Below the pieces are notes generated by a model that saw only the letters and a program-made list of their open reading frames with translations, was not told the DNA's origin and made no database searches. Both the position numbers and the translations under genes were made by a program. From Candidatus Caccovivens faecavium (GTDB lineage Bacteria; Bacillota; Clostridia; Christensenellales; UBA1242): a stretch of DNA of 64,000 bases. Within the stretch, counting starts at the first letter, position 1. The number at the start of each line of letters is the position of its first letter. The stretch covers positions 9,101 through 73,100 of the forward strand of contig DVLK01000098.1 in the NCBI GenBank assembly GCA_018715545.1, in the 5' to 3' direction. This document shows positions 3,315 through 53,801 of the stretch, piece by piece.

Positions 3315-3590
3315 ATGCTGAGATAGATGGGGAGTTAGCGGTGCCCTGTAACCTGCAATCCGCTATAGCAGGATTGAACGCTTGCTTAGGAGTAATTTGG
3401 TTGAAGATGTGCGTAGGATAGGGGCGTTGAAATCAAGGTCTTATGCAATTGGTAACTCTGAACCATGTCAGGTCCTGACGGAAGCATCATTAAGGAGATC
3501 TATCGATGTGCCATAAGGTAGCTTTGGTGGAGTTTTTGTTCTACGAAACAGTCAGTCTTATTATTTCGAAGCATTCTCTCAGCCATCATC
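3315..3590 (+). ncRNA. ffs: Signal recognition particle RNA, large Bacillus type with Alu domain (scRNA/4.5S homologue)
   Basis: Conserved S-domain string GTCAGGTCCTGACGGAAGCA (~3466-3486). 5'-domain string CTGTAACCTGCAATCCGCTATAGCAGGATTGAAC as in Bacillus scRNA. 5' GCTGAGA (3317-3323) pairs with 3' TCTCAGC (3577-3583). Promoter upstream and terminator downstream. Ends are approximate. Confidence 0.9.
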
Positions 3591-3619: not shown

Positions 3620-3730
3620 TTTAATCGCTTGTTTTATTTGAAGATAGTCATCAATGTCATTTTCTAAAAATATAGTTATACAGTAGTTAAAATTTGGTGC
3701 TTTAAAAAGTAATTTTATGCAAGGACAAAG

Positions 3731-3780
3731 AAAAATCACACCAAGTCATCTTTAAAGGTAGATTTTGTGGTGTGATTTTT
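3731..3780. terminator. Bidirectional hairpin downstream of the minus-strand ytxH-like gene
   Basis: A perfect 13-nt inverted repeat AAAAATCACACCA / TGGTGTGATTTTT with a 24-nt loop. There are A/T runs on both sides. Confidence 0.5.
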
Positions 3781-3837
3781 TCTATGATGCCGAATGGTGA
3801 TTGTTTGCGTATTATGTAAGAGCATGAATTTGTGCGC

Positions 3838-4261: not shown

Positions 4262-5164
4262 ATGTTAAGCAAAATTCTTCCAGAAAAGATTGCACATATT
4301 GTTAACACAAAAATCAACTTAAAAAGCGTGAACGAGATTAGATTTCGTGCGGACAAGCCTATCATTGTGGCGGTGGGTGGGAAAAACTATTTTTTAAGCG
4401 AAAACGGGCTAACTTCATCGCTAAAAGACGCGTTATATTCATCTAAGATTGTCATTGAGGACATCATTTTTCGTGCAAGCGAGTGTTCAATATATTCTGT
4501 CAATGAGCAGATTAAAAAGGGGTATATTGTCACTGAAAATGGGCTAAGGATTGGTATTGGCGGAAATGTTGTGGAAGAAAACGGACAAGTTAAGACAATG
4601 ACAAATTTTAACAGCCTGAACATTCGTATTCCGCACGCCATTAAAAACTGCTCACTCTCATATTTTCCATATATCGTGCATGATAACACCATTGAAAACA
4701 CCCTTGTTATTTCTCCGCCAGGGTGCGGAAAGACCACTTTTTTACGCGATTTTGTGGCACAGTTAAGCGAACGAAATTTAACTTACAATGTGCTACTTCT
4801 CGATGAGCGTGGGGAACTGGACACTGAACTTAATGCCAACTTTTATGATAAAATCGCCTTTTCAAGTAAGAAAATGGGCTTTGAGAATGGGATTAGGTCG
4901 CTTTCGCCAGACCTCATAGTAACCGATGAAGTCGGGCAGGAAGAGGACATAGATGCTATTTTATACGCTTCGACCTGCGGGGTGAAGATACTTGCTTCCA
5001 CTCACGCTGATAGTATGGAAACCTTTATCAAAAAGGCACTTTTTCAAAAGTTAATCAAAGAAAAGGTGTTTAAAAGGTATGTGCTACTCTCCAAACGAAA
5101 TGGCCCTGGAACGAATGAAGGAATATATAACGAGAATTTTTCGCGGTTGTCATCTAGTTTTTGA
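4262..5164 (+). CDS. spoIIIAA: Stage III sporulation protein AA (ATPase)
   Basis: Walker A motif SPPGCGKTT and Walker B-like LIVTDE. It is the first gene of an 8-gene spoIIIA-ordered cluster. Confidence 0.9.
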   Translation: MLSKILPEKIAHIVNTKINLKSVNEIRFRADKPIIVAVGGKNYFLSENGLTSSLKDALYSSKIVIEDIIFRASECSIYSVNEQIKKGYIVTENGLRIGIGGNVVEENGQVKTMTNFNSLNIRIPHAIKNCSLSYFPYIVHDNTIENTLVISPPGCGKTTFLRDFVAQLSERNLTYNVLLLDERGELDTELNANFYDKIAFSSKKMGFENGIRSLSPDLIVTDEVGQEEDIDAILYASTCGVKILASTHADSMETFIKKALFQKLIKEKVFKRYVLLSKRNGPGTNEGIYNENFSRLSSSF

Positions 5165-5238
5165 TAAGTCTATTTTAGTTTAGTTATTGGCTTTAATTCT
5201 ATGAAAAGTTATTTATGTGCTTAAAAGGGGAGAAAGGA

Positions 5239-5733
5239 ATGAAATATGTCATCATTGCAGTTTTATTTGTGATTTGCCTTGTTGTTGGTTACACATTTTT
5301 TAGTAAGTATGATAAGCGGAAAAAGTTTTTTACTTCTCTTATCATGTTGGCGGAGAAACTTACAGTGGAAATCAATTTTTCGCGCGAGAGGCTTAAAGTT
5401 TTAATTGAAAATTTTGACAAAAATACAAAACAGAATTTGCTAGGCATAGATGAGGGCTTCATTTCTTATCTTGACAAAAAAACGGAATTAAACGAGAAAG
5501 AGATTTTTAAAAAGGCGGATGTTTTAAAGAAGAACGAAAAGGATTTTATTTTGCTATTTTTAAAGACGCTAGGGCGAAGTGATGTAGAAAACCAGACGAA
5601 GGAGATTGCAAGTTTCAACAAGCGTTTTCAAGAGATGAAGGCGTCAAGCGATTTGGAGTATAAAAAGTACGGCACGCTTTCACTTAAATTAAGTTTAATT
5701 GCAGGGCTATTTTTTGTGATTGTGCTTATTTAA
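5239..5733 (+). CDS. spoIIIAB: Stage III sporulation protein AB
   Basis: Position in the operon, with N- and C-terminal TM helices. I prefer the ATG at 5239 (RBS AAAGGGGAGAAAGG) over the ORF-track start at 5215. Confidence 0.8.
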   Translation: MKYVIIAVLFVICLVVGYTFFSKYDKRKKFFTSLIMLAEKLTVEINFSRERLKVLIENFDKNTKQNLLGIDEGFISYLDKKTELNEKEIFKKADVLKKNEKDFILLFLKTLGRSDVENQTKEIASFNKRFQEMKASSDLEYKKYGTLSLKLSLIAGLFFVIVLI

Positions 5734-19276: not shown

Positions 19277-19311
19277 TAAAAAAATTGAACGATCGTGTCG
19301 TTCAATTTTTT
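19277..19311. terminator. Bidirectional terminator between the ThyX-like gene and rpmB
   Basis: Stem TTGAACGA / TCGTTCAA (19285-19292 / 19298-19305) with an A-run upstream and a T-run downstream. Confidence 0.8.
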
Positions 19312-19486
19312 AGTTACCTTTTTTCTTAGCAGTCTTAATGCATTTTGTGCAAGCTCTTACTCTTTTTCCGTTAATTTCTGTTTCTTGAAGATTAACATTA
19401 TATTTTCTTGGAGCTTTGTTATTGGCATGGCTCACTGTTTTTCCGTCCATTTTGCCTTTTTCGCAAATTTCGCAAACTCTACTCAT
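19310..19486 (-). CDS. rpmB: 50S ribosomal protein L28 (58 aa; absent from the ORF track because it is under 60 aa)
   Basis: The minus-strand translation is MSRVCEICEKGKMDGKTVSHANNKAPRKYNVNLQETEINGKRVRACTKCIKTAKKKGN. RBS AAAGGAGAAGGG. It is divergent from asp23-yloV, as in the Bacillus rpmB/yloU-yloV arrangement. Confidence 0.85.
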   Translation of the reverse strand: MSRVCEICEKGKMDGKTVSHANNKAPRKYNVNLQETEINGKRVRACTKCIKTAKKKGN

Positions 19487-19807
19487 TTCCCTTCTCCTTT
19501 TATTATTTTTATTTACGGGCTTTATTTTATCATACTTTTAATAAAAAATCAACTATTTTTTCTATTTTGTTTTTAATTTTACTAATCGACTCATAATAAT
19601 AGCTGTAATAAAGAATTGTGTTTTAACTTCTTTATAAATGAATAAAAGGTATTTTTATACGCATATAAATAAAAGAGGCGCTTATATTAATTTTGCGAAA
19701 TTTTGAACTCAAATTTTAAATAAAATTTACAAAATTTAACAATAATCGTTAAAGGAAAAATATTTTTGAATTATTTTTGAAAAAAATATTTTTTTGTTTA
19801 ATTTTAC

Positions 19808-19836
19808 TTGCGAAAATTTAGATAATGGTGTATTAT
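19808..19836 (+). promoter_or_regulatory. Promoter giving a ~235-nt structured leader for asp23-yloV
   Basis: TTGCGA (19808-19813), 17 nt spacer, TATTAT (19831-19836). Confidence 0.55.
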
Positions 19837-19866: not shown

Positions 19867-20011
19867 AAAGCCTATATTATCGGAAGCCTAGTCAAGCACA
19901 ACGAAGTTGTATTTGAGCGAGGCTGATGGTTATACAAACTGTGGTGGTGCAATTCATTGCACATTTTGTGTTAACAAAATTAAAATTTAACTTGTTAAAT
20001 TTTAACATCAC
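19867..20011 (+). repeat. Copy A of a ~145-nt structured intergenic element
   Basis: Aligns by eye with 24129-24273 at roughly 70 percent identity. Shared blocks are ATATTAT, CAAGC, CATTTGAGCGA, ACATTTTGTG and AAAATTTAACTTG-TTAA-TTTTAACATCA. Contains hairpins GTGCAAT-tc-ATTGCAC and TTAAAATTTAAC-tt-GTTAAATTTTAA. Confidence 0.6.
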
Positions 20012-20077
20012 TATTATCGAAAATTTATTTATAAAATTTTCGGGCGAATTGATGCATTGTTTTTTTGGAGGAAACTT

Positions 20078-20428
20078 TTGACAGTAGATACCAATAATTA
20101 TTATGGTAAAATTTCAATTAGCGACAAGGCGATACGCACTGTCGCTGGTTTTGTCGCCATGGATTGTTATGGTGTCGTTGACCTTGTTTCTAAGAGCATA
20201 AAAGACAGTGCGCGTGAGTTTTTTAAAAAGGAATCCTATTCTCGTGGGGTTTCAGTAAATCATATCGACAACCGTATATATATTGACATACACTGCATTT
20301 TAAAGTATGGTGTTTCTATTTCTGCGGTTGCTGAGTCACTTAAAAAATCAGTTAAATACACAATTGAAAATTTCACAGGCATGATTGTTGACACTGTGAA
20401 TGTTCACGTTGTGGGTGTTAGAGTGTAG
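20078..20428 (+). CDS. Asp23/Gls24-family protein (yloU-like)
   Basis: ISISDKAIRTVAGFVAMDCYGV is typical of the family. I prefer the TTG start at 20078, 6 nt after GGAGG (20067-20071), over the ORF-track start at 20057. Confidence 0.85.
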   Translation: MTVDTNNYYGKISISDKAIRTVAGFVAMDCYGVVDLVSKSIKDSAREFFKKESYSRGVSVNHIDNRIYIDIHCILKYGVSISAVAESLKKSVKYTIENFTGMIVDTVNVHVVGVRV

Positions 20429-20440
20429 GAGTTAATTATT

Positions 20441-22075
20441 ATGCAGAAAACGATTAATGGTGTGTCCTTTCGTAAGATGGTTCTTGCGGGGGTTAGCCTT
20501 TTAGAGCAAAATAAAGAATATATTGATTCGCTTAATGTCTTTCCTGTTCCAGATGGAGACACAGGAACAAATATGTTTCTAACGATGAAGTCCGCTATGA
20601 CAGAGATAAATAAGTGCATGAATAACGATATTTCTTCTCTTTCAGAAGCTTTCAGCAAGGGCGCTCTTCGTGGCGCGAGAGGAAATAGCGGTGTTATTAC
20701 TTCTCAGATTTTTAAAGGGTTTTGTTCTGTAACAAGTGGATGTAAAGAGATTACAACAAAAGATTTTGCAAAGGCTATGCAAGAGGGCGCGACCATTGCA
20801 TACAAAGCTGTCACAAAGCCAAAAGAGGGGACTATCTTAACTGTCATTCGTGTTATGGCTGAAAACGCCGTTTCTCTTGCGAAGAAGCATGAAGATTTTG
20901 AAGTGTTCTTAAAGAAAGTGATAGACACAGGTGAAGAAATTTTAAAACAGACGCCTGAAATGCTTCCTGTGCTTAAAAAGGCGGGAGTTGTGGACTCTGG
21001 TGGTAGAGGTATTCTTGTTATCTTCACAGGATTTTATCGCTACATCATGGGCGATGAAGATTTAGAAATAACATTTGAAGATGACAAACAACCTCAAAGT
21101 CTTGACGATGTGATTGCGGACATAAATAATCTTGGCGATATTGAATTCGGTTACTGCACTGAGTATATGATTATCCATATGCACAAAAAGACGACAGAAG
21201 CAGATATTGATAAGCTAAGAGAAAAACTTATGGAAATCGGCGACTCTGTCATCTGCATCGGTGACCTATCGCTTGTCAAAGTGCATGTGCATACAAACGA
21301 ACCTAACAAAGCTCTCGGCTATGCGCTTGAACTTGGTGAACTTTTCAACTTGAAAATAGAAAATATGCGTGAACAAAACAGAGAACTTAAAAAGAAAGCA
21401 CAAGTTGTTGAAGAAAGCAAAGAAATGGGTATGATTTCTGTCGCTCCTGGTGATGGACTTGCATCAATATTTAAAGATTTAACAGTTGATGAAATTATTG
21501 TTGGTGGTCAAACTATGAACCCAAGTGCTGAGGACATTGCTACCGCTGCCGACAAAGTGCCTGCAAGAACCGTTTTTGTTTTTCCTAATAATAAGAATAT
21601 CGTTTTAGCAGCAGAACAAGCAAACGATGTGACAAATAAAAATTTAGTCATCATTCCAACCAAAAGCGTTCCAGAAGGAATTTCCGCAGCTATCGCTTTC
21701 AATCCCGAGGCCAGTGTTGAAGAAAACAAGACGGCTATGCTTGACGCGATAAAGTCTGTCCGCTCTGGACAGGTGACTTATGCAGTTCGCGACACTCATG
21801 TCGATGGTTTTGACCTTCGAAAGGGAGAGATTATTGGACTTGACGACAAGGCAATCTTGGCGAAGGGTGACTTAGTGGGCGACACCACAGAAAAACTTAT
21901 CGAAACGATGTTTAATGACAGCGTTATCAACATTACACTGTTCTTTGGCGAGGATATTAGAGAGGATGAAGCAAATAAATTGCAAGAAAAACTTGCTGAA
22001 AAATATCCTGAGTGCGAAGTAACGGTAGCTAATGGCGGTCAGCCAGTATATTATTACATCATTTCACTTGAATAA
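20441..22075 (+). CDS. yloV: DAK2-domain fusion protein YloV
   Basis: N-terminal Dak2 motifs (NVFPVPDGDTGTNM; ARGNSGVI). The 544-aa length and its position after the Asp23 gene also fit. Confidence 0.9.
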   Translation: MQKTINGVSFRKMVLAGVSLLEQNKEYIDSLNVFPVPDGDTGTNMFLTMKSAMTEINKCMNNDISSLSEAFSKGALRGARGNSGVITSQIFKGFCSVTSGCKEITTKDFAKAMQEGATIAYKAVTKPKEGTILTVIRVMAENAVSLAKKHEDFEVFLKKVIDTGEEILKQTPEMLPVLKKAGVVDSGGRGILVIFTGFYRYIMGDEDLEITFEDDKQPQSLDDVIADINNLGDIEFGYCTEYMIIHMHKKTTEADIDKLREKLMEIGDSVICIGDLSLVKVHVHTNEPNKALGYALELGELFNLKIENMREQNRELKKKAQVVEESKEMGMISVAPGDGLASIFKDLTVDEIIVGGQTMNPSAEDIATAADKVPARTVFVFPNNKNIVLAAEQANDVTNKNLVIIPTKSVPEGISAAIAFNPEASVEENKTAMLDAIKSVRSGQVTYAVRDTHVDGFDLRKGEIIGLDDKAILAKGDLVGDTTEKLIETMFNDSVINITLFFGEDIREDEANKLQEKLAEKYPECEVTVANGGQPVYYYIISLE

Positions 22076-22079
22076 TTTT

Positions 22080-22108
22080 AAAAGCGCTTAATTTAAGTGC
22101 TTTTATTT
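22080..22108 (+). terminator. Intrinsic terminator after yloV
   Basis: Stem AAAGCGCTTA / TAAGTGCTTT with one G-U pair and loop ATTT, followed by a T-run. Confidence 0.75.
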
Positions 22109-22193
22109 TACATGCTTTTAGTTATTATATCATAATTAAATAAATATTTTTATTTTAAAGGTCGAAAAAAGTTTAATATTTTTATTGGCAATA

Positions 22194-22221
22194 TTGACAA
22201 AATTAATTTTTGTGGTAAAAT
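22194..22221 (+). promoter_or_regulatory. Promoter of the 629-aa orphan (extended -10)
   Basis: TTGACA (22194-22199), 16 nt spacer, TGgTAAAAT (22213-22221). Confidence 0.65.
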
Positions 22222-22238
22222 AGTTTTAAGAGGTGAAT

Positions 22239-24128
22239 ATGAATAACTTAGCCTATGAAGGTGAGATTGTACGCTTGGCCACAAAATACTTTGCAATGAG
22301 TGAAGATGAAATAGCTAGCGCGCTTATAAGAGCCAAGAAGAAAAAAGATTTTAGCGAAAGTTATTTATATTCTATTTTAATTTCGGCTGAACCTTATTTT
22401 GCTAGATATATTAAAGATACTCCGATCGACTTACAAAGGAAAATTGGTAGGGTGGCATTTGATGGTTTAAATTATTCAACCTTTCCTCTCTATGAAACGC
22501 CGTCAGAAATGAGGTATAGACTTGCTGAGTTCTTTAACATGGCAAGTAATTATGGTATAAATCCATACAAAATTTTTTATTCCACTGTCATTTCAAAGGC
22601 TCATCTGTTTTTTAATAAAGAGGGAAAATATAGTAATTACAAGCGTGATATTAGTAATTTTGAGGTGGTTTCAAGGGCTATTGAAGAGCAACTTGGGCTA
22701 GATAGAACTAAGGTTGCGAAAATGTATGAGCGCTGTTCTTCTCTTTCCTATAAAGTTGACACAGAAAAGGTTGCCAAAAACTACCGTGCAATCAGGAGGT
22801 TGAGTTATAATTCTGAATTTGTATTCAATATGGTAGATGTCAAGGAAATTTTGAGAAATAATCCTACTTTATATTCTTGTTCTGAAAATCAAATAGAAAG
22901 TGCTTTTAATTATCTTAAAAAGAAAGCTGAAATTTATAAGCATAGAAATAAGGACACAAGATTTGTAGAAGATATTTTAAATAGCTGGATAAAGAACAAT
23001 TCTTCATCACTTGCTATCAATGTTGAAGGAATGAAAAGTAAAGAAAGAGCGTTGTATAGCTTTTTGACTACTATTGCAAGTAAAGATGAAGTAGCTAGTG
23101 TTTTGTACTCTACATTTGATAATCCGACTAGTATTTCCACCATAAATAAGATTTCTAGTGATACATTTTTTAGACACGACAATTATATGAAAGTGATAAA
23201 GACGCTCATCTATTATCTGGACAATCCAAGTAAAGAGAAATATCCTATAAACGCCTTAAACTACTTAAAACATTCAAAACTTGTATATTCTATTGACCAT
23301 AAGAGGTTAAATGCTTTTTTAGATAAAGTTAAAAATTGTGACATTCAAGATAATACAAATTTAATCCAAAAATTTGTTGAAAAGGGCGATGCTATCTATT
23401 CCTATTTCGACAAATATACTGATGACGAAATAATAGAAAAACTTAGAACGAACAAGATTTTATTCCGCATAAAACTCTATAACATGACTAAATCAATGAT
23501 TGCGCATAAGTTTTACGAGGTATTTTCGCATAATCCTGACGAAAAGTTTAATTATTTGAATGACCTTTTGCGTGAAAATTATAACTTAGAGCTTATCTGT
23601 CTTCATATCAATGATGCAGAAAGAAGTTTATTAAATTTGAAAGTTGCTTTAAAAAAAGAAGAAAAAATCTTACCTTTTGCAAAGGCAATTGAAGAGTTTA
23701 CTAGTAGCTTTATGGGTGTATATTATCAGTACGAAGAAAAATATTTAAAAACTAGTTTTAGTGAAGCTATGAATTTGTTTTTAAAAAGGGTTGACCGCGT
23801 GAAAGAAGAGATTGACACTCTTTATAATGAAGGGGTTGATGAGGCAAAGAAACGATATGATAATGTTGAAGCTTTGTATAACGCTTTTAAGCAAAATACG
23901 GGAGAAAAGTTATCAAAAAATAACAATCCTATAACAAGGCGCGAGGATTTTAAAAATCAATTAAATGAGGTTATAGAGAGCTTAGAAAAAGAAGTTGGAA
24001 CAAAACAACTTTCCATCTATGATTATAAAGATGAAGATGACGACAAATATGAAGCTTTAAATATATTAAAGGGCGTGCGAGCTAGATTTAACACTTTTGA
24101 TAGCCATGTAGAGAAAGAAAAATGTTGA
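22239..24128 (+). CDS. Hypothetical 629-aa Lys-rich, predicted all-helical protein
   Basis: Long clean ORF. The ATG at 22239 lies 5 nt after AAGAGG, whereas the ORF-track GTG at 22233 overlaps the RBS. No nucleotide-binding or catalytic motif was recognised. It has repetitive helical segments. Confidence 0.7.
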   Translation: MNNLAYEGEIVRLATKYFAMSEDEIASALIRAKKKKDFSESYLYSILISAEPYFARYIKDTPIDLQRKIGRVAFDGLNYSTFPLYETPSEMRYRLAEFFNMASNYGINPYKIFYSTVISKAHLFFNKEGKYSNYKRDISNFEVVSRAIEEQLGLDRTKVAKMYERCSSLSYKVDTEKVAKNYRAIRRLSYNSEFVFNMVDVKEILRNNPTLYSCSENQIESAFNYLKKKAEIYKHRNKDTRFVEDILNSWIKNNSSSLAINVEGMKSKERALYSFLTTIASKDEVASVLYSTFDNPTSISTINKISSDTFFRHDNYMKVIKTLIYYLDNPSKEKYPINALNYLKHSKLVYSIDHKRLNAFLDKVKNCDIQDNTNLIQKFVEKGDAIYSYFDKYTDDEIIEKLRTNKILFRIKLYNMTKSMIAHKFYEVFSHNPDEKFNYLNDLLRENYNLELICLHINDAERSLLNLKVALKKEEKILPFAKAIEEFTSSFMGVYYQYEEKYLKTSFSEAMNLFLKRVDRVKEEIDTLYNEGVDEAKKRYDNVEALYNAFKQNTGEKLSKNNNPITRREDFKNQLNEVIESLEKEVGTKQLSIYDYKDEDDDKYEALNILKGVRARFNTFDSHVEKEKC

Positions 24129-24273
24129 AAGCAATATTATTAGAAGTTACTACCAAGCGTGTTAAAGTCACATTTGAGCGAAATTAATGTTCACTCAAAT
24201 ATTGAGTGTGTAATTTATTGTACATTTTGTGGTTATAAAATTCAAAATTTAACTTGGTTAAGTTTTAACATCA
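24129..24273 (+). repeat. Copy B of the ~145-nt structured intergenic element
   Basis: Starts directly after the stop codon at 24126-24128. Its hairpins GTGTAAT-tt-ATTGTAC and AAAATTTAAC-tt-GGTTAAGTTTT keep pairing only through G-U wobbles on the + strand. It also has mutually exclusive hairpins TTTGAGCGAA/TTCACTCAAA and CACTCAA/TTGAGTG. Confidence 0.6.
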
Positions 24274-24352
24274 TATAGATTATTTGCAACACATGTTTAA
24301 ATTTCAAATTCAAGTGTTTTTAATAGATATTTTCGAAATTTAAGCATTTTGT

Positions 24353-24381
24353 TTGCAAATATTTTTCTTTTATATTATAAT
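24353..24381 (+). promoter_or_regulatory. frr operon promoter
   Basis: TTGCAA (24353-24358), 17 nt spacer, TATAAT (24376-24381). Confidence 0.65.
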
Positions 24382-28624: not shown

Positions 28625-30154
28625 ATGAATTTTGAACAAGAGTTTAATAAAAAGTTTGGAGAGAGATTTCCTGATTTATATCTAAAAAATGTTGTTGTAG
28701 ATAAGGACACTTGCACAGTGACTTTTCTTTATCCATCCACTGATGAAACGCTTACCGATGTTGAAAAAGAGGAAATTATAAAGTTTATAGAAGAAAAACT
28801 TTCGCTTGTCTTTTTACATCTTAAAGTTAAATTCATGAAGGCCTATGTTGAAGAAAAACTCATAAGAAAGACGCTTTTTAATATACTTGAAGATAAATTT
28901 AAATTACTAAAAACATACATTCATGATGAAGATATCAAGGTTGAGATAACAAATATTGATTGTACAATCACCTTTGATGTCAGTCCGCGTCTTGCACAAT
29001 TTTTTGCTGATAATAAGGCGTCAGTGTATATTGCAAAGGCGCTAAAAGAAAATTTTTTAATTAATTTTAACATCAACTTGAATTTACTTGATGATAAGGT
29101 TGACGAAGTTGATATTGACAATATAGAGATAAAAACGACCGCGCGCAAAACTCAGAGATATGATGTATTGGTAATTAAAGAGGTGATTGGAAAAGATATT
29201 CCGCCAAAGCCAGAATATATTATAAATATTCAATCGCCTAAATCCTCGGTAATTTTAGCGGGCTACATTGGAGATTTGGAACGCAAAGATTTTGTCATTA
29301 AGAAGGGGGCGCGTGCAGGTCAGCAAAAAGCTTATTATAAATTTAATCTATTTGACGGCAAGGGTAAAATTGAGTGCTTATATTTTTGTCCAAAAAAATA
29401 TGAAAGAGATATGGATGCCTTAGAGGAGCATATGTTCCTACTTCTACATGGTGATGTGAAGTTAGGACTAAATGGCAAGTTGACACTATATATTGATAAG
29501 CTTGCTCTTGCAAGTGAAACTGAGCAGAAAGAGGTTGAAAAGCCTCGCGAGCAAGTTAAGGAAGTGGAAATAGAGAGGCTTGGAGCGCTTGAACAGGACA
29601 ATATGTTTGGTGAAGTTGAAAAATACAACCATAAGGTTATGGACCATAATATTGTGGTATTCGATGTTGAAACCACAGGCTTAAATCCTGAAACGGACCA
29701 AATAATTGAGCTTGGCGCTGTAAAAATTGAAAGGGGAAATATCGTTGAAAAATTCTCTACTTTTGTGAAGCCTACTATTGAAATTCCGTATGAAGTTACA
29801 GAGCTTACACATATCACAAATGAAATGGTGGAAAGTGCACCAAATATAGAAGATGTTATCAGGCAATTTTATGAATTTTCCAAGGACTGTGTGCTTTGCG
29901 GACATAATATTATAAACTTTGATATTAAGTTTATTAGGCGCTTTGGTAGTTACCAAAATTTGGATTTTAATAACGACTTAATCGACACAATGAACGAGGC
30001 GAGAGTATCACGCTTGAAAATTTCTAGGTTCAATCTTGGAACAGTGACAAAGGCGTTAGGTATTGAACTAAAAGGAGCGCACCGAGCGTGGAATGACGCG
30101 TTTGCAACTGCTCAGGTACTTTTAAAACTAAATGAAGCAGGAAGAAAGCTGTAA
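28625..30154 (+). CDS. PolC-derived exonuclease: PolC-like N-terminal region plus OB fold plus DEDDh 3'-5' exonuclease, with no PHP or polymerase domains
   Basis: Exo I VVFDVETTGL (aa ~345), Exo II GHNIINFDIKF (aa ~426), Exo III HRAWNDAFAT (aa ~486). An OB-like segment at aa ~205-295 (SSVILAGYIGDLERKDF...YKFNLFDGKGKIECLYF...LLLHGDVKL) is arranged as in PolC. It occupies the polC slot between rseP and rimP. Confidence 0.7.
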   Translation: MNFEQEFNKKFGERFPDLYLKNVVVDKDTCTVTFLYPSTDETLTDVEKEEIIKFIEEKLSLVFLHLKVKFMKAYVEEKLIRKTLFNILEDKFKLLKTYIHDEDIKVEITNIDCTITFDVSPRLAQFFADNKASVYIAKALKENFLINFNINLNLLDDKVDEVDIDNIEIKTTARKTQRYDVLVIKEVIGKDIPPKPEYIINIQSPKSSVILAGYIGDLERKDFVIKKGARAGQQKAYYKFNLFDGKGKIECLYFCPKKYERDMDALEEHMFLLLHGDVKLGLNGKLTLYIDKLALASETEQKEVEKPREQVKEVEIERLGALEQDNMFGEVEKYNHKVMDHNIVVFDVETTGLNPETDQIIELGAVKIERGNIVEKFSTFVKPTIEIPYEVTELTHITNEMVESAPNIEDVIRQFYEFSKDCVLCGHNIINFDIKFIRRFGSYQNLDFNNDLIDTMNEARVSRLKISRFNLGTVTKALGIELKGAHRAWNDAFATAQVLLKLNEAGRKL

Positions 30155-43071: not shown

Positions 43072-43308
43072 GTAAAAACGATGATGAAAGACTAGTAGGC
43101 TTGTGGTTTTTCTTACAGAGAGTCCTTTTTGCTGAGATAGGGCAGAAAAAGCAGGTTGAATTCACTTTCTAGTTGCACCTTGAAAGATTTTCGAGTAGGG
43201 GTTGTCGCGTGGGCAGGCGTAATTGTCATAATGAGGTGCTTATATAAGCATGAAATTAGGTGGTAACACGATTAATAATCGTCCTAATATTTTTAGGGCG
43301 ATTTTTTA
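43072..43308 (+). promoter_or_regulatory. T-box riboswitch leader, Phe specifier (UUC)
   Basis: Stem I GA-motif CGATGATGAAAGACTAGTA and AGAGA box (CAGAGAG). Specifier context GAA-TTC-A with TTC at 43161-43163. T-box sequence AAATTAGGTGGTAACACG (43253-43270). Terminator AATCGTCCTAA / TTAGGGCGATT (43277-43303) plus a T-run. Confidence 0.9.
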
Positions 43309-52391: not shown

Positions 52392-53156
52392 TTAGTTGTT
52401 TATATTTCTATACATTTCTTCGTTAATTAAATATTTATTTGGAGTGTATGAAGGCAATCGTTCGTTTCCCCAGTATATATTTGGATGCTTATATAGTTTA
52501 TAGCCATTTCCAAAATTTTGGTAGGAAATAACATCAAAATCAGGAACACTGTTAATTAATATATTTCCAAACTGCACATTTTTACCAAATTGCTTGCTTA
52601 TTCTTTCCACTTCTTTTGTTGTTTCAATTAAACCTTTAATATCACACCAACTAGCGTTTGTTCCACTGGCAAAAGGAGAATTTGGACCATACACAGGGGC
52701 TAAATTTGGATGTGTATGACCTTGAAAAAGAACAGGTTTTTTATAATTTGAATGCTTTATAAATTCATTTACCCTTTTATTTATTAGTTGAAAAGAAGGA
52801 GTGTCCCTGTATTCATCTTCAAATGCTGTATTGCTTTTTCGACCTTGCCTGATTGCAGTATAGTATTCATCATAGTTTGGAAGAATGTCTGTAATCATCA
52901 CATCACCATTATCTAATTCATAACCAAACATAAAAAATCCTAATTCATTAGCAGTGTTGCGTTTGGCATTTTCACCTAATGTGTTTATTATGTTAGTTAA
53001 TTCTTTGCCTAAATCTTTTGATATAATAATTTTCCCATGTAAAGTAGGAAACATATTTTGAGAAACTAAATTTATCTCTTCATCCGAAGCGACTTTACCT
53101 TTTTCGGCAACATAGCCTAAACCTTGATTTTTTAATACTTGTTCAACAATATGCAT
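52392..53156 (-). CDS. Hypothetical protein with a possible JAB/MPN (JAMM) metalloprotease motif
   Basis: RBS AGGAG. ELGFFMFG (E71), GHTHP (H147/H149) and SWCD (S169/D172) are in JAMM order, but with a ~12-aa longer H-to-S spacing than canonical. Confidence 0.4.
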   Translation of the reverse strand: MHIVEQVLKNQGLGYVAEKGKVASDEEINLVSQNMFPTLHGKIIISKDLGKELTNIINTLGENAKRNTANELGFFMFGYELDNGDVMITDILPNYDEYYTAIRQGRKSNTAFEDEYRDTPSFQLINKRVNEFIKHSNYKKPVLFQGHTHPNLAPVYGPNSPFASGTNASWCDIKGLIETTKEVERISKQFGKNVQFGNILINSVPDFDVISYQNFGNGYKLYKHPNIYWGNERLPSYTPNKYLINEEMYRNINN

Positions 53157-53277
53157 AAATAACTCCTATTAATTATAGTACCATAAAAAATTATAATTAG
53201 CAAGTAGTTCGAATTATCTTTTTATAAAGATAGTATCTCATATTTCAATCATATATCGCGCACTTATGCCATTTCAT

Positions 53278-53306
53278 TTGACAAAATCGTCAAAATATTT
53301 TAAACT
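53278..53306 (+). promoter_or_regulatory. Promoter positioned for a leaderless ruvC transcript
   Basis: TTGACA (53278-53283), 17 nt spacer, TAAACT (53301-53306), 6 nt, ATG (53313). No SD sequence. Confidence 0.55.
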
Positions 53307-53312
53307 TAATGT

Positions 53313-53801
53313 ATGAGAGTTTTAGGTATTGACCCTGGCTATGCAATTGTCGGCTACGGGATTATTGAAACAAGCGAAAATAACAAGGTTATCGACTATG
53401 GGGTTATCGAAACGCCAAAAGAGGATCCATTGCCTATAAGGCTTCAACATATCGACGAGGCGCTTAGGGTTATTTTTGAAACTTATAGGCCAGATGAAGT
53501 TGCTATTGAAGAGCTTTTTTATTTCAAAAATCAAAAAACTGTCATTCAGGTGGCACAGGCGAGAGGGGTGATTGTGCTTGCAAGTCAAAAATATTGCGGA
53601 CGCACCTTTGAATACACACCAATCCAAATCAAGCAGGCGTTAACAGGTAATGGACATGCCGAAAAAAGGCAGATGCAGTATATGGTTAAAAATGTACTTG
53701 GGCTTAAAGATATACCGCGTCCAGACGATGCAGCAGATGCGCTTGCCGTAGCGATATGCCATGGACAAATAAATCCTAGACTGAACTTTAATATGATGTG
53801 A
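53313..53801 (+). CDS. ruvC: Holliday junction resolvase RuvC
   Basis: MRVLGIDPGYAIVGYG, plus EELFYFKN and PDDAADALAVAICH. Confidence 0.95.
   Translation: MRVLGIDPGYAIVGYGIIETSENNKVIDYGVIETPKEDPLPIRLQHIDEALRVIFETYRPDEVAIEELFYFKNQKTVIQVAQARGVIVLASQKYCGRTFEYTPIQIKQALTGNGHAEKRQMQYMVKNVLGLKDIPRPDDAADALAVAICHGQINPRLNFNMM

Follow-up and report, generated by a model that had tools for sequence, protein, structure and literature searches.

A structured, probably mobile non-coding repeat family between the genes of uncultured low-GC Firmicutes

Introduction

The bcr1 repeats of the Bacillus cereus group (i.e., the group A bcr elements) are non-coding, chromosomal sequences of about 155 bp that occur in tens of copies, together with many partial ones, at positions that vary between strains; they have a predicted secondary structure, their mobility has been tied to a flanking AT motif (TTTAT) that is possibly duplicated on insertion, and no transposase is known for them, the mechanism being still unknown (PMC6542083, PMC6199540). 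Here, we describe two related non-coding repeats, A and B, in a 64,000-nucleotide (nt) stretch of DNA from Candidatus Caccovivens faecavium (GenBank assembly GCA_018715545.1, contig DVLK01000098.1, positions 9,101 to 73,100 of the forward strand; this whole stretch is called the window below), A preceding the asp23-fakA genes and B preceding frr. The explanation that we favor, with a probability of roughly 0.7, is that A and B were inserted independently of each other, as copies of a small mobile repeat (135-156 nt) that is non-coding and non-autonomous and occupies intergenic positions in a clade of uncultured low-GC Firmicutes.

Several other kinds of small bacterial repeat offer points of comparison. 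Correia/NEMIS of Neisseria and RUP of pneumococcus, which are transposable elements of the miniature inverted-repeat type (MITEs), have terminal inverted repeats matching an insertion sequence (IS) and a TA duplication, and can be co-transcribed with their neighbors and alter untranslated regions (UTRs). BOX, ERIC and REP are dispersed stem-loop sequences, modular or tandem, that lie within mRNAs in either orientation; the palindromic REP units measure 20-40 nt and are mobilized by RAYT transposases, and BOX is composed of A-B-C modules.

Results

Two copies in the window, members of a dispersed family

A preliminary description of the window, made from its letters alone, had pointed out two similar stretches of ~145 nt in direct orientation, and these are real: their local alignment scores 88, against a mean of 18 and a maximum of 32 for 500 shuffles of B. 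When 19867-20011 is compared to the whole window by blastn, only 24172-24273 matches besides the query itself (102 nt, 77.5% identity, E=6.5e-16), and a repeat search of the window resolves the pair into 85 nt ungapped at 71% identity plus 29 nt at 79%. From 18 full-length copies, we built a covariance model (R1) of the family; it has exactly two matches in the 64-kb window, A at 19871-20023 (137.5 bits) and B at 24131-24286 (97.5 bits), and it is the stretches around these positions that we denote A and B; L-numbers denote loci fetched from relatives or metagenomes. The borders first proposed hold to within a few bases at the 5' ends, while the proposed 3' ends (20011 and 24273) fall ~12 nt short.

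The family comprises unannotated elements of 135-156 nt, with about 24 copies on about 20 metagenome or metagenome-assembled genome (MAG) contigs. Specifically, an exact-pattern scan of one genome per species revealed three copies in the uncultured Firmicutes MAG CASDQU01 (one beside tdk and two in tandem between parB and a rubrerythrin gene), and a scan of metagenome contigs with the pattern common to five known copies returned 25 loci, 18 of them confirmed by a profile hidden Markov model. Seven metagenome matches to the pattern of H3, the last hairpin of the element (L031, L032, L035, L037, L040, L041 and L048), were chance, unrelated hits, and most of the pattern matches in genomes (L011-L016, L018-L020, L022 and L023) also proved unrelated. 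Over the collected loci, R1 gives 24 matches of 53-163 bits. Hence, further copies, which the preliminary description had proposed to look for, were indeed found in MAG and metagenome contigs, and its suggestion of a genome-specific structured repeat is the one borne out, in the form of a multi-copy, dispersed family with a covarying fold. Copies are single or form head-to-tail arrays (L017, L030, L038, L042 and L043), and contig ends often coincide with copies, as expected of repeats that break assemblies. Within the family, A shares 95.7% identity with a copy at another locus (L030, 171-323) as opposed to 74.5% with B, which is the outlier and most divergent member.

Searches elsewhere were negative. 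A consensus-like copy had no blastn match in 72,556 plasmids, nor in a phage collection, and a scan of viral contigs yielded chance H3 matches only (<=28 bits); a phage or plasmid origin was rejected. In accordance with the preliminary description, which recognized no known RNA family, Rfam 15 returned only a signal recognition particle (SRP) RNA and a T-box elsewhere when the window was scanned at the gathering threshold, no match overlapping either copy when the A/B region was scanned on both strands at E<=10, and only scattered chance matches at E<=5 in six loci with nine or more copies.

Empty orthologous sites and the insertion motif

Homologues of the 629-aa protein encoded between fakA and B (an orphan, i.e., of no recognized family) provided a ladder of relatives at 96, 79, 64, 57, 56 and 31% identity, whose contigs were compared to the window. 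The order rpmB, asp23-fakA, orphan, frr is kept in L004/L005 (about 78-79%), L006 (64%) and L010 (57%), and the same order occurs in L060-L067. The rpmB-asp23 spacer measures about 436-441 nt in L004 and L006 vs. 591 nt in the window, and the orphan-frr spacer 109-119 nt vs. 276 nt. When aligned to L004 and L006, the stretches missing from these relatives are exactly A and B, with flanks that are still alignable and a frr promoter block that is 97% identical. Consistent with these alignments, the covariance model has no match in L004, L006, L008 or L010; inspection of L010 by eye showed a short asp23 leader without A, and only site A is readable there as the contig stops before frr. Site A is also empty in L060-L067. 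One of these loci, L061, lies on the same 235-kb contig as L039, which bears a 35-nt remnant as well as a full copy, the latter located between metK and plsX; that is, a sister species has the family, at other places only.

These empty sites decide against an interpretation raised in the preliminary description, namely that the two copies bracket an asp23-yloV-orphan block (yloV being fakA) as the scar of a rearrangement. Under this interpretation, the direct repeats A and B would date from the event, a rearrangement or an insertion, that brought asp23-fakA-orphan to its place between tsf and frr, or else from a local segmental duplication, and the usual tsf-pyrH-frr order is indeed interrupted by a 4.1-kb block with a direct copy on either side. 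However, the same block and order are found with neither copy in L004, L006, L010 and L060-L067, and, within the family, A counts among the most distant relatives of B and B among those of A, the nearest kin of A being at another locus. Further, the orphan-frr pair follows tuf in L008 (the 31% relative), which indicates that this linkage is older still and independent of asp23-fakA. Bracketing and scar are thus refuted, and the probability that we leave to such an origin is close to nil.

The alleles also reveal where the element starts and ends. Look-ups of the exact Asp23 and RRF proteins provided further alleles, and (with slashes marking the boundaries) site A reads ...AAAGCCTAGATT / TGAATTTTTTATTTCAAATGTT / ATTATTGC in six sister-species contigs, where it is empty, and ...AAAGCCTATATT / ATCGGAAGCC...AACATCAC TATTAT / CGAAAATTTATTTATAAAATTTTCGGGCGA / ATTGATGC in four contigs of the window's species, where it is filled; in short form, the 3' boundary of the filled allele is CATCAC TATTAT / CGAA. 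Hence, the TATATT at the 5' edge is a pre-existing target, the insert starts at ATCGG, and a TATATT-like hexamer follows the insert. Aligned by eye, the hairpin CGAAAATTTATTTATAAAATTTTCG downstream of A agrees with TGAATTTTTTATTTCAAATGTT from the empty alleles at about 14/22 positions. At site B, the window reads GCAATATT, the element and TATTT, and L004 has one GCTTATATT in the same place. More generally, TATATT stands on both sides of single copies and of arrays (CTATATT or AATATT at some copies), one motif is present at empty sites, and adjacent units of an array have one TATATT in common. These data fit either a fixed target duplication of 6-8 bp or insertion 3' of the target by an element whose right end recreates the motif, and either model explains the head-to-tail arrays. 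In L030 (3620-3660), a copy (3654-3800) is located right on the T-run belonging to an intrinsic terminator hairpin, AATCACCTATGCTATAGGTGATTTTTT, which suggests that T-rich terminator tails may serve as TATATT-like targets. A resemblance of the unit junction to a dif/Xer site was dismissed, the similarity being too short and the copies dispersed.

A two-domain fold conserved on one strand

The consensus unit reads TATATT / ATCGGAAGCC-(variable hairpin)-GGCTGATGG TTATACAAAC TGTGATG G (H1)(H2)(H3) C CATCACA TAGTT / TATATT, the element proper starting with ATCGGAAGCC and ending in ...TTAAATTTTAACATCACATAGTT (3' end also given as ...CATCACATAGTTTATATT). Stems were taken from RNAalifold, and pairs were counted on a MAFFT alignment fitted to no structure. 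The stem of the 5' domain appears as AGCC/GGCU, AGUC/GACU, GGUC/GACC or AGUU/AACU around a hairpin of variable length, and the closing stem of the 3' domain is UGUGAUG/CAUCACA, or UGCGGUG/CACCGCA in L043 (core GCGGUG/CACCGC). Among the hairpins that it encloses, H1 is GUGCAAU/AUUGCAC or ACACAAU/AUUGUGU (i.e., GUG/CAC covaries to ACA/UGU), H2 is AUUUUGU/ACAAAAU, UUUUGC/GCAAAA or GUUUGC/GCAAAC (AAUUC/GAAUU in L033), and H3 is nearly invariant among the collected copies, partly because of their collection by exact match. Folded individually, nearly all copies form H1 and H2. Across the alignment, 91.5% of the cells are paired (92.9% on a model-fitted alignment), as opposed to at most 46% when the 3' partners are slid, and both partners have changed in 16 of the 38 pairs (or 17, if the model-fitted alignment is used), a number reached by none of 500 shuffles; the covariation that the preliminary description proposed to look for is present.

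The differences between A and B first described are also as claimed: GTGCAAT/ATTGCAC of H1 in A (19947-19962) becomes GTGTAAT/ATTGTAC in B, and TTAAAATTTAAC/GTTAAATTTTAA in A becomes AAAATTTAAC/GTTAAGTTTT in B. The claim that pairing is preserved as RNA of the + strand is favored by the family as a whole, since stems contain G-U or U-G 41 times vs. A-C or C-A 12 times, and the + strand has a lower minimum free energy (MFE) than its complement in 17 of the 18 copies (mean difference of 3.7 kcal/mol). As for the two overlapping hairpins of B (ATTTGAG/CTCAAAT and CACTCAA/TTGAGTG), which had been likened to a switch, the hairpins are present but both are private to B and unconserved in the family, where the same segment is the 5' strand of the long-range stem TGTGATG/CATCACA. 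The apparent switch is thus a by-product of the decay of B.

A few other roles for the sequence were tried and set aside. A has a single open reading frame (ORF; 49 codons, from ATG 19926), and the same frame in B is stopped after 8 codons, with differences that are not synonymous; a small peptide was consequently rejected. The segment resembling a hammerhead CUGAUG core is base-paired in the family fold and matches no Rfam ribozyme, and the candidate segment for internal guide pairing with TATATT (GGTTATAC) is not conserved. A diversity-generating retroelement, retron, CRISPR or type III antitoxin array was also rejected, there being no reverse transcriptase or toxin nearby, a wrong unit size and dispersed copies.

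A conserved fold of this kind might alternatively belong to a host family of non-coding RNA genes, that is, small RNAs in many copies, some of them in tandem, that serve a function in the cell and spread by duplication rather than transposition. The covarying, multi-stem fold kept on one strand in all contexts would agree with such genes, and tandem small-RNA genes are known in other bacteria. Further, H1 followed by a U-run scores as terminator-like, and the 3' ends of units carry a weak, outward promoter-like sequence, TTTAAA-18-TATATT, that would start transcription at the next unit. In L042 (1042-1071 and 1178-1207, minus strand), this sequence is made of the 3' arm of H3 plus the terminal TATATT, and the predicted start falls at the first base-paired residues of the next unit. 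However, single copies have no conserved promoter and their 5' flanks are unrelated, and the terminator-like H1 is inside the covarying closing stem, so that the folded unit must extend past it. Copies are also found in UTRs and between convergent genes, contigs break at them, truncated remnants exist, individual copies decay, and presence or absence differs between sister species and even between strains. A host small-RNA family fits the contexts poorly, and we consider it unlikely.

The ends of the element bear on another alternative, a miniature of the IS200/IS605 type (a palindrome-associated transposable element, PATE), which a Y1 HUH transposase would carry as single-stranded DNA to a position 3' of TATATT, with no duplication of the target, its right end terminating in the same motif. 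The family lacks terminal inverted repeats (comparison of the 5' end, ATCGGAAGCCGAAC, with the 3' end, AACATCACATAGTT(TATATT), reveals no inverted copy in the 18 aligned members), it does have subterminal hairpins, its fold is strand-specific with G-T tolerated, and it is inserted directly 3' of a fixed short motif, with the head-to-tail arrays that are expected if the right end recreates the target. On the other hand, one TnpA binds similar hairpins at both ends of IS200/IS605 elements, whereas the left and right hairpins here are unrelated in sequence, the left one being freely variable (CTTGCTTGCAAG vs. CAAGCACAACGAAGTTGTATTTG and others), unlike the constant right hairpin TTAAAATTTAAC..TTAAATTTTAA. 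In loci that add up to about 450 kb, no copy has tnpA or tnpB beside it, and the all-family Rfam 15 scans, Rfam having models for IS605-associated RNAs, gave no match on the element. On balance, this alternative appears rather unlikely.

Contexts and orientation of the copies

The genes next to copies (parB, rubrerythrin, tdk, RNase R, mreB, cysS, fba, degV, metK, plsX and ruvC) are unrelated housekeeping genes, and the element is oriented either way relative to them. This is difficult to reconcile with a cis-regulatory leader, riboswitch or attenuator of asp23-fakA and frr, a role for the family that was among the options of the preliminary description. It is true that A lies on the sense strand in the 5' UTR of asp23-fakA and B upstream of frr, that the fold is structured, and that three contexts touch fatty-acid genes (fakA, degV and plsX). 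Nevertheless, close relatives express the same operons without the element, many copies are antisense to both neighbors or downstream of genes, there is no constant sense position upstream of one gene class, B lies upstream of the frr promoter and thus outside the frr leader, and the proposed switch is specific to B. The cis-regulatory reading is already contradicted by orientation and context, and we regard it as very improbable.

Decay of inserted copies

Inserted copies appear to be left to drift. B keeps 3 of the 5 pairs of its closing stem and has an MFE z-score of -1.06 vs. -3.76 for A; B is an old, decaying copy. In strain L053, with flanks identical to those of the window, B (24130-24280) is replaced by a 29-nt remnant, TTTTATTAAATTTTAATATTACTCACTCA (1344-1372), which shows the A of the family consensus at the H3 position occupied by G in B and is therefore not a simple deletion of the present B. 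Truncated members, or members without the 5' domain, are found in L025, L029 and L039, and A differs at several positions among four strains, with no sign of extra constraint. A comparison of a possible empty site at ruvC (L047 vs. window 53060-53335) was of little use as the flanks are too diverged to align usefully.

Gene neighborhood and coordinates

The genes of the region are rpsB, tsf, a 391-aa ThyX-like gene and rpmB (minus strand, about 19310-19486), followed by A, asp23, fakA/yloV, a terminator, the 629-aa gene, B, frr, uppS, cdsA and rseP (Table 1). The promoter previously noted upstream of A was confirmed; A lies ~35 nt 3' of it, and the asp23-fakA leader is about 235 nt long in the window vs. 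about 90 nt in relatives. The stop codon just 5' of B is also as described (TGA, 24126-24128), with B beginning two bases later, in the 3' UTR of the 629-aa gene.

Table 1. Positions of the two copies, their parts and the flanking features in the window
Feature	Position	Strand	Remarks
Predicted asp23-fakA promoter, TTGCGA-17-TATTAT	19808-19836	+	Reads through A; conserved in L004, L006, L010 and L060-L067; putative function
TATATT motif at the 5' edge of A	19873-19878	+	Target-derived, not inserted; empty alleles AAAGCCTAGATT / TGAA, filled AAAGCCTATATT / ATCGG
Copy A, inserted element, ATCGGAAGCC ... AACATCAC plus 3' TATTAT	19879-20017	+	Young subfamily; 3' tail without ATAGTT
Copy A, 5' domain	19885-19924	+	Stem AGCCU/AGGCU around variable hairpin (RNAfold)
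Copy A, 3' domain, four-way junction	19941-20011	+	Closing stem GUGGUG/CAUCAC around H1, H2 and H3
Copy A, H1	19947-19962	+	
Copy A, H2	19963-19980	+	
Copy A, H3	19980-20005	+	
Hairpin CGAAAATTTATTTATAAAATTTTCG, 3' of A	20018-20043	+	Probably pre-existing leader, outside the element
asp23	20078-20428	+	Pfam Asp23; flanking gene, outside the element
fakA/yloV	20441-22075	+	Pfam Dak2 plus FakA middle and C-terminal domains; flanking gene, outside the element
Terminator 3' of fakA	22079-22105		
629-aa protein gene	22239-24128	+	Flanking gene of no family; always upstream of frr
Copy B, AATATT target motif, ATTAGAAG ... AACATCATATAGAT, TATTT	24133-24285	+	Old, degenerate; absent from L004 and L006
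Promoter-like site of frr, 3' of B	24352-24381	+	In a block 97% identical in relatives without B

A number of side observations were made in the same region. The 629-aa protein has no Pfam family, its sole match being sub-threshold (mTERF, E=4.6e-4, residues 152-236); its gene is directly upstream of frr in every relative compared (L004, L006, L007, L008 and L010), including the one where the pair follows tuf and not fakA, and it evolves fast, with 79% identity where Asp23 and RRF are identical. Between 17281 and 24971, the usual tsf-pyrH-frr run is interrupted, with pyrH absent here and the space between tsf and frr taken up by a 391-aa protein whose ThyX (Thy1) domain is partial, by rpmB, by asp23-fakA and by the 629-aa gene, an arrangement that is kept in the sister species. 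The rpmB-asp23 intergenic region 5' of the asp23 promoter (19487-19800) shares about 78% identity with that of the sister species along about 390 nt, which is long for a divergent promoter region; an rpmB leader may lie within it. Upstream of asp23 and downstream of the orphan gene, L010 has several GTCATTCTGAGCGAAGCGAAGAATCTCGTCG-like units (100-150, 300-360, 5040-5090 and 5180-5240), which represent a second, unrelated intergenic repeat family in this clade.

Farther away, at 28625-30154 (and also in L004, L006 and L008), a 509-aa protein is encoded where polC normally follows rseP/proS, with rimP-nusA directly next; it has OB-fold and RNase_T/DEDDh exonuclease matches and no polymerase domain, and could be a split or relocated PolC. 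The large bacterial SRP RNA at 3318-3582 (160 bits) and the T-box leader at 43072-43289 (119 bits) are ordinary Firmicutes features. In L039 (500-640), a structured, GC-richer leader upstream of metK, with the terminator-like hairpin GACCGATGG...CCATCGG followed by a T-run at its end, looks like a SAM riboswitch.

Discussion

Taken together, the family is multi-copy and polymorphic in position, has a fixed insertion motif and a fold conserved on one strand, and shows neither coding capacity nor a link to a class of genes. Because the same-strand fold is kept whatever the orientation of a copy, and inserted copies drift and decay, we infer selection on propagation rather than on service to the flanking genes. 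Under the model of a non-autonomous mobile repeat, insertion would take place immediately 3' of TATATT, a second TATATT would then follow the insert, and re-insertion at the regenerated motif would give head-to-tail arrays; a trans-acting enzyme encoded elsewhere would presumably recognize the folded single strand, as DNA or RNA. A would be carried passively in the asp23-fakA 5' UTR, where a local side effect on the operon is possible given its position, and any regulatory effect of A or B would be incidental.

Several points weigh against this model or the certainty with which it can be drawn. Among the loci examined, we saw neither a transposase or recombinase nor a full-length parent element with the same ends, and no transposase was found among the 20 flanking proteins scanned, the host genomes being present only as fragments; terminal inverted repeats are lacking. 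A function of the RNA in the cell is another possible meaning of the strong covariation, and the G-U counts, the MFE differences and the counts of covarying cells were obtained from copies that are related and not independent, and are indicative in this sense. Since a copy had to match H3, or H2 plus H3, exactly in order to be collected by the scans, ascertainment accounts in part for the apparent invariance of H3 and for the excess of copies truncated at the 5' end. Two insertion sites were compared with empty sites, both against the sister species (about 78% identity in neutral DNA), and the boundaries are therefore good to a few bases. Finally, with the same motif at all copies, the flanking TATATT pair could reflect a duplicated target, an element-borne 3' end adjoining a preferred target or the stub of a further unit; the three are indistinguishable.

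By analogy with the bridge RNAs of IS110 or the guide RNAs of IS200/605, it is conceivable, albeit improbable in our view, that the fold is itself the active part of the element, i.e., that the folded RNA or single-stranded DNA directs a trans-acting recombinase or nuclease to TATATT. If this were true, the family would represent a miniature, RNA-guided mobile element without a protein gene of its own.

For annotation, our results remove the riboswitch and rearrangement-scar leads and explain the 150 nt by which both the asp23-fakA leader and the orphan-frr spacer exceed those of the sister species, as well as the breaking of assemblies of uncultured gut-type Firmicutes at these points. The new family comes with a covariance model, boundaries and a target motif, and joins the few bacterial dispersed repeats that lack inverted-repeat ends and have a fold under selection. 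What moves such elements has been a question for bcr1 for twenty years, and the filled and empty sites and arrays described here offer a second system in which to seek the enzyme.

Comparison with known repeat systems places the family as follows. It resembles MITEs such as Correia/NEMIS and RUP in being small, non-coding, multi-copy, intergenic and insertion-polymorphic, but its ends (ATCGGAAGCC... and ...CATCACATAGTT) are not terminal inverted repeats and no parent IS was seen in the loci examined; it has no sequence relation to BOX, ERIC or REP and its architecture is another one. With PATEs, it shares the lack of terminal inverted repeats, the strand-specific hairpins and the insertion 3' of a fixed short motif, and differs from them in its dissimilar end hairpins, the absence of a transposase nearby and the absence of an Rfam match. 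That is, an IS200/IS605-type mechanism fits in part (missing inverted repeats, strand asymmetry and fixed target) and misfits in the dissimilar end hairpins.

The nearest functional analogue is bcr1. The two have in common size, lack of coding capacity, copy number, fragments, positional variation and a fold, and the consensus edges of the family (TTTATATT / ATCGG and ...AGTTTATATT) contain TTTAT, the motif tied to bcr1 mobility. The differences are that bcr1 is restricted to the B. cereus group whereas the hosts of the family are uncultured low-GC Firmicutes known from MAGs or metagenome contigs, that the family has a two-domain fold with a four-way junction and commonly forms head-to-tail arrays, and that no sequence relation to bcr1 was detected by an indirect test, in which a copy of the family had no match in the plasmid set, where bcr1 has been reported (PMC6542083). 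Accordingly, the family is neither a classical MITE nor REP, BOX, ERIC or any Rfam family; it is a new family of an already known kind of element.

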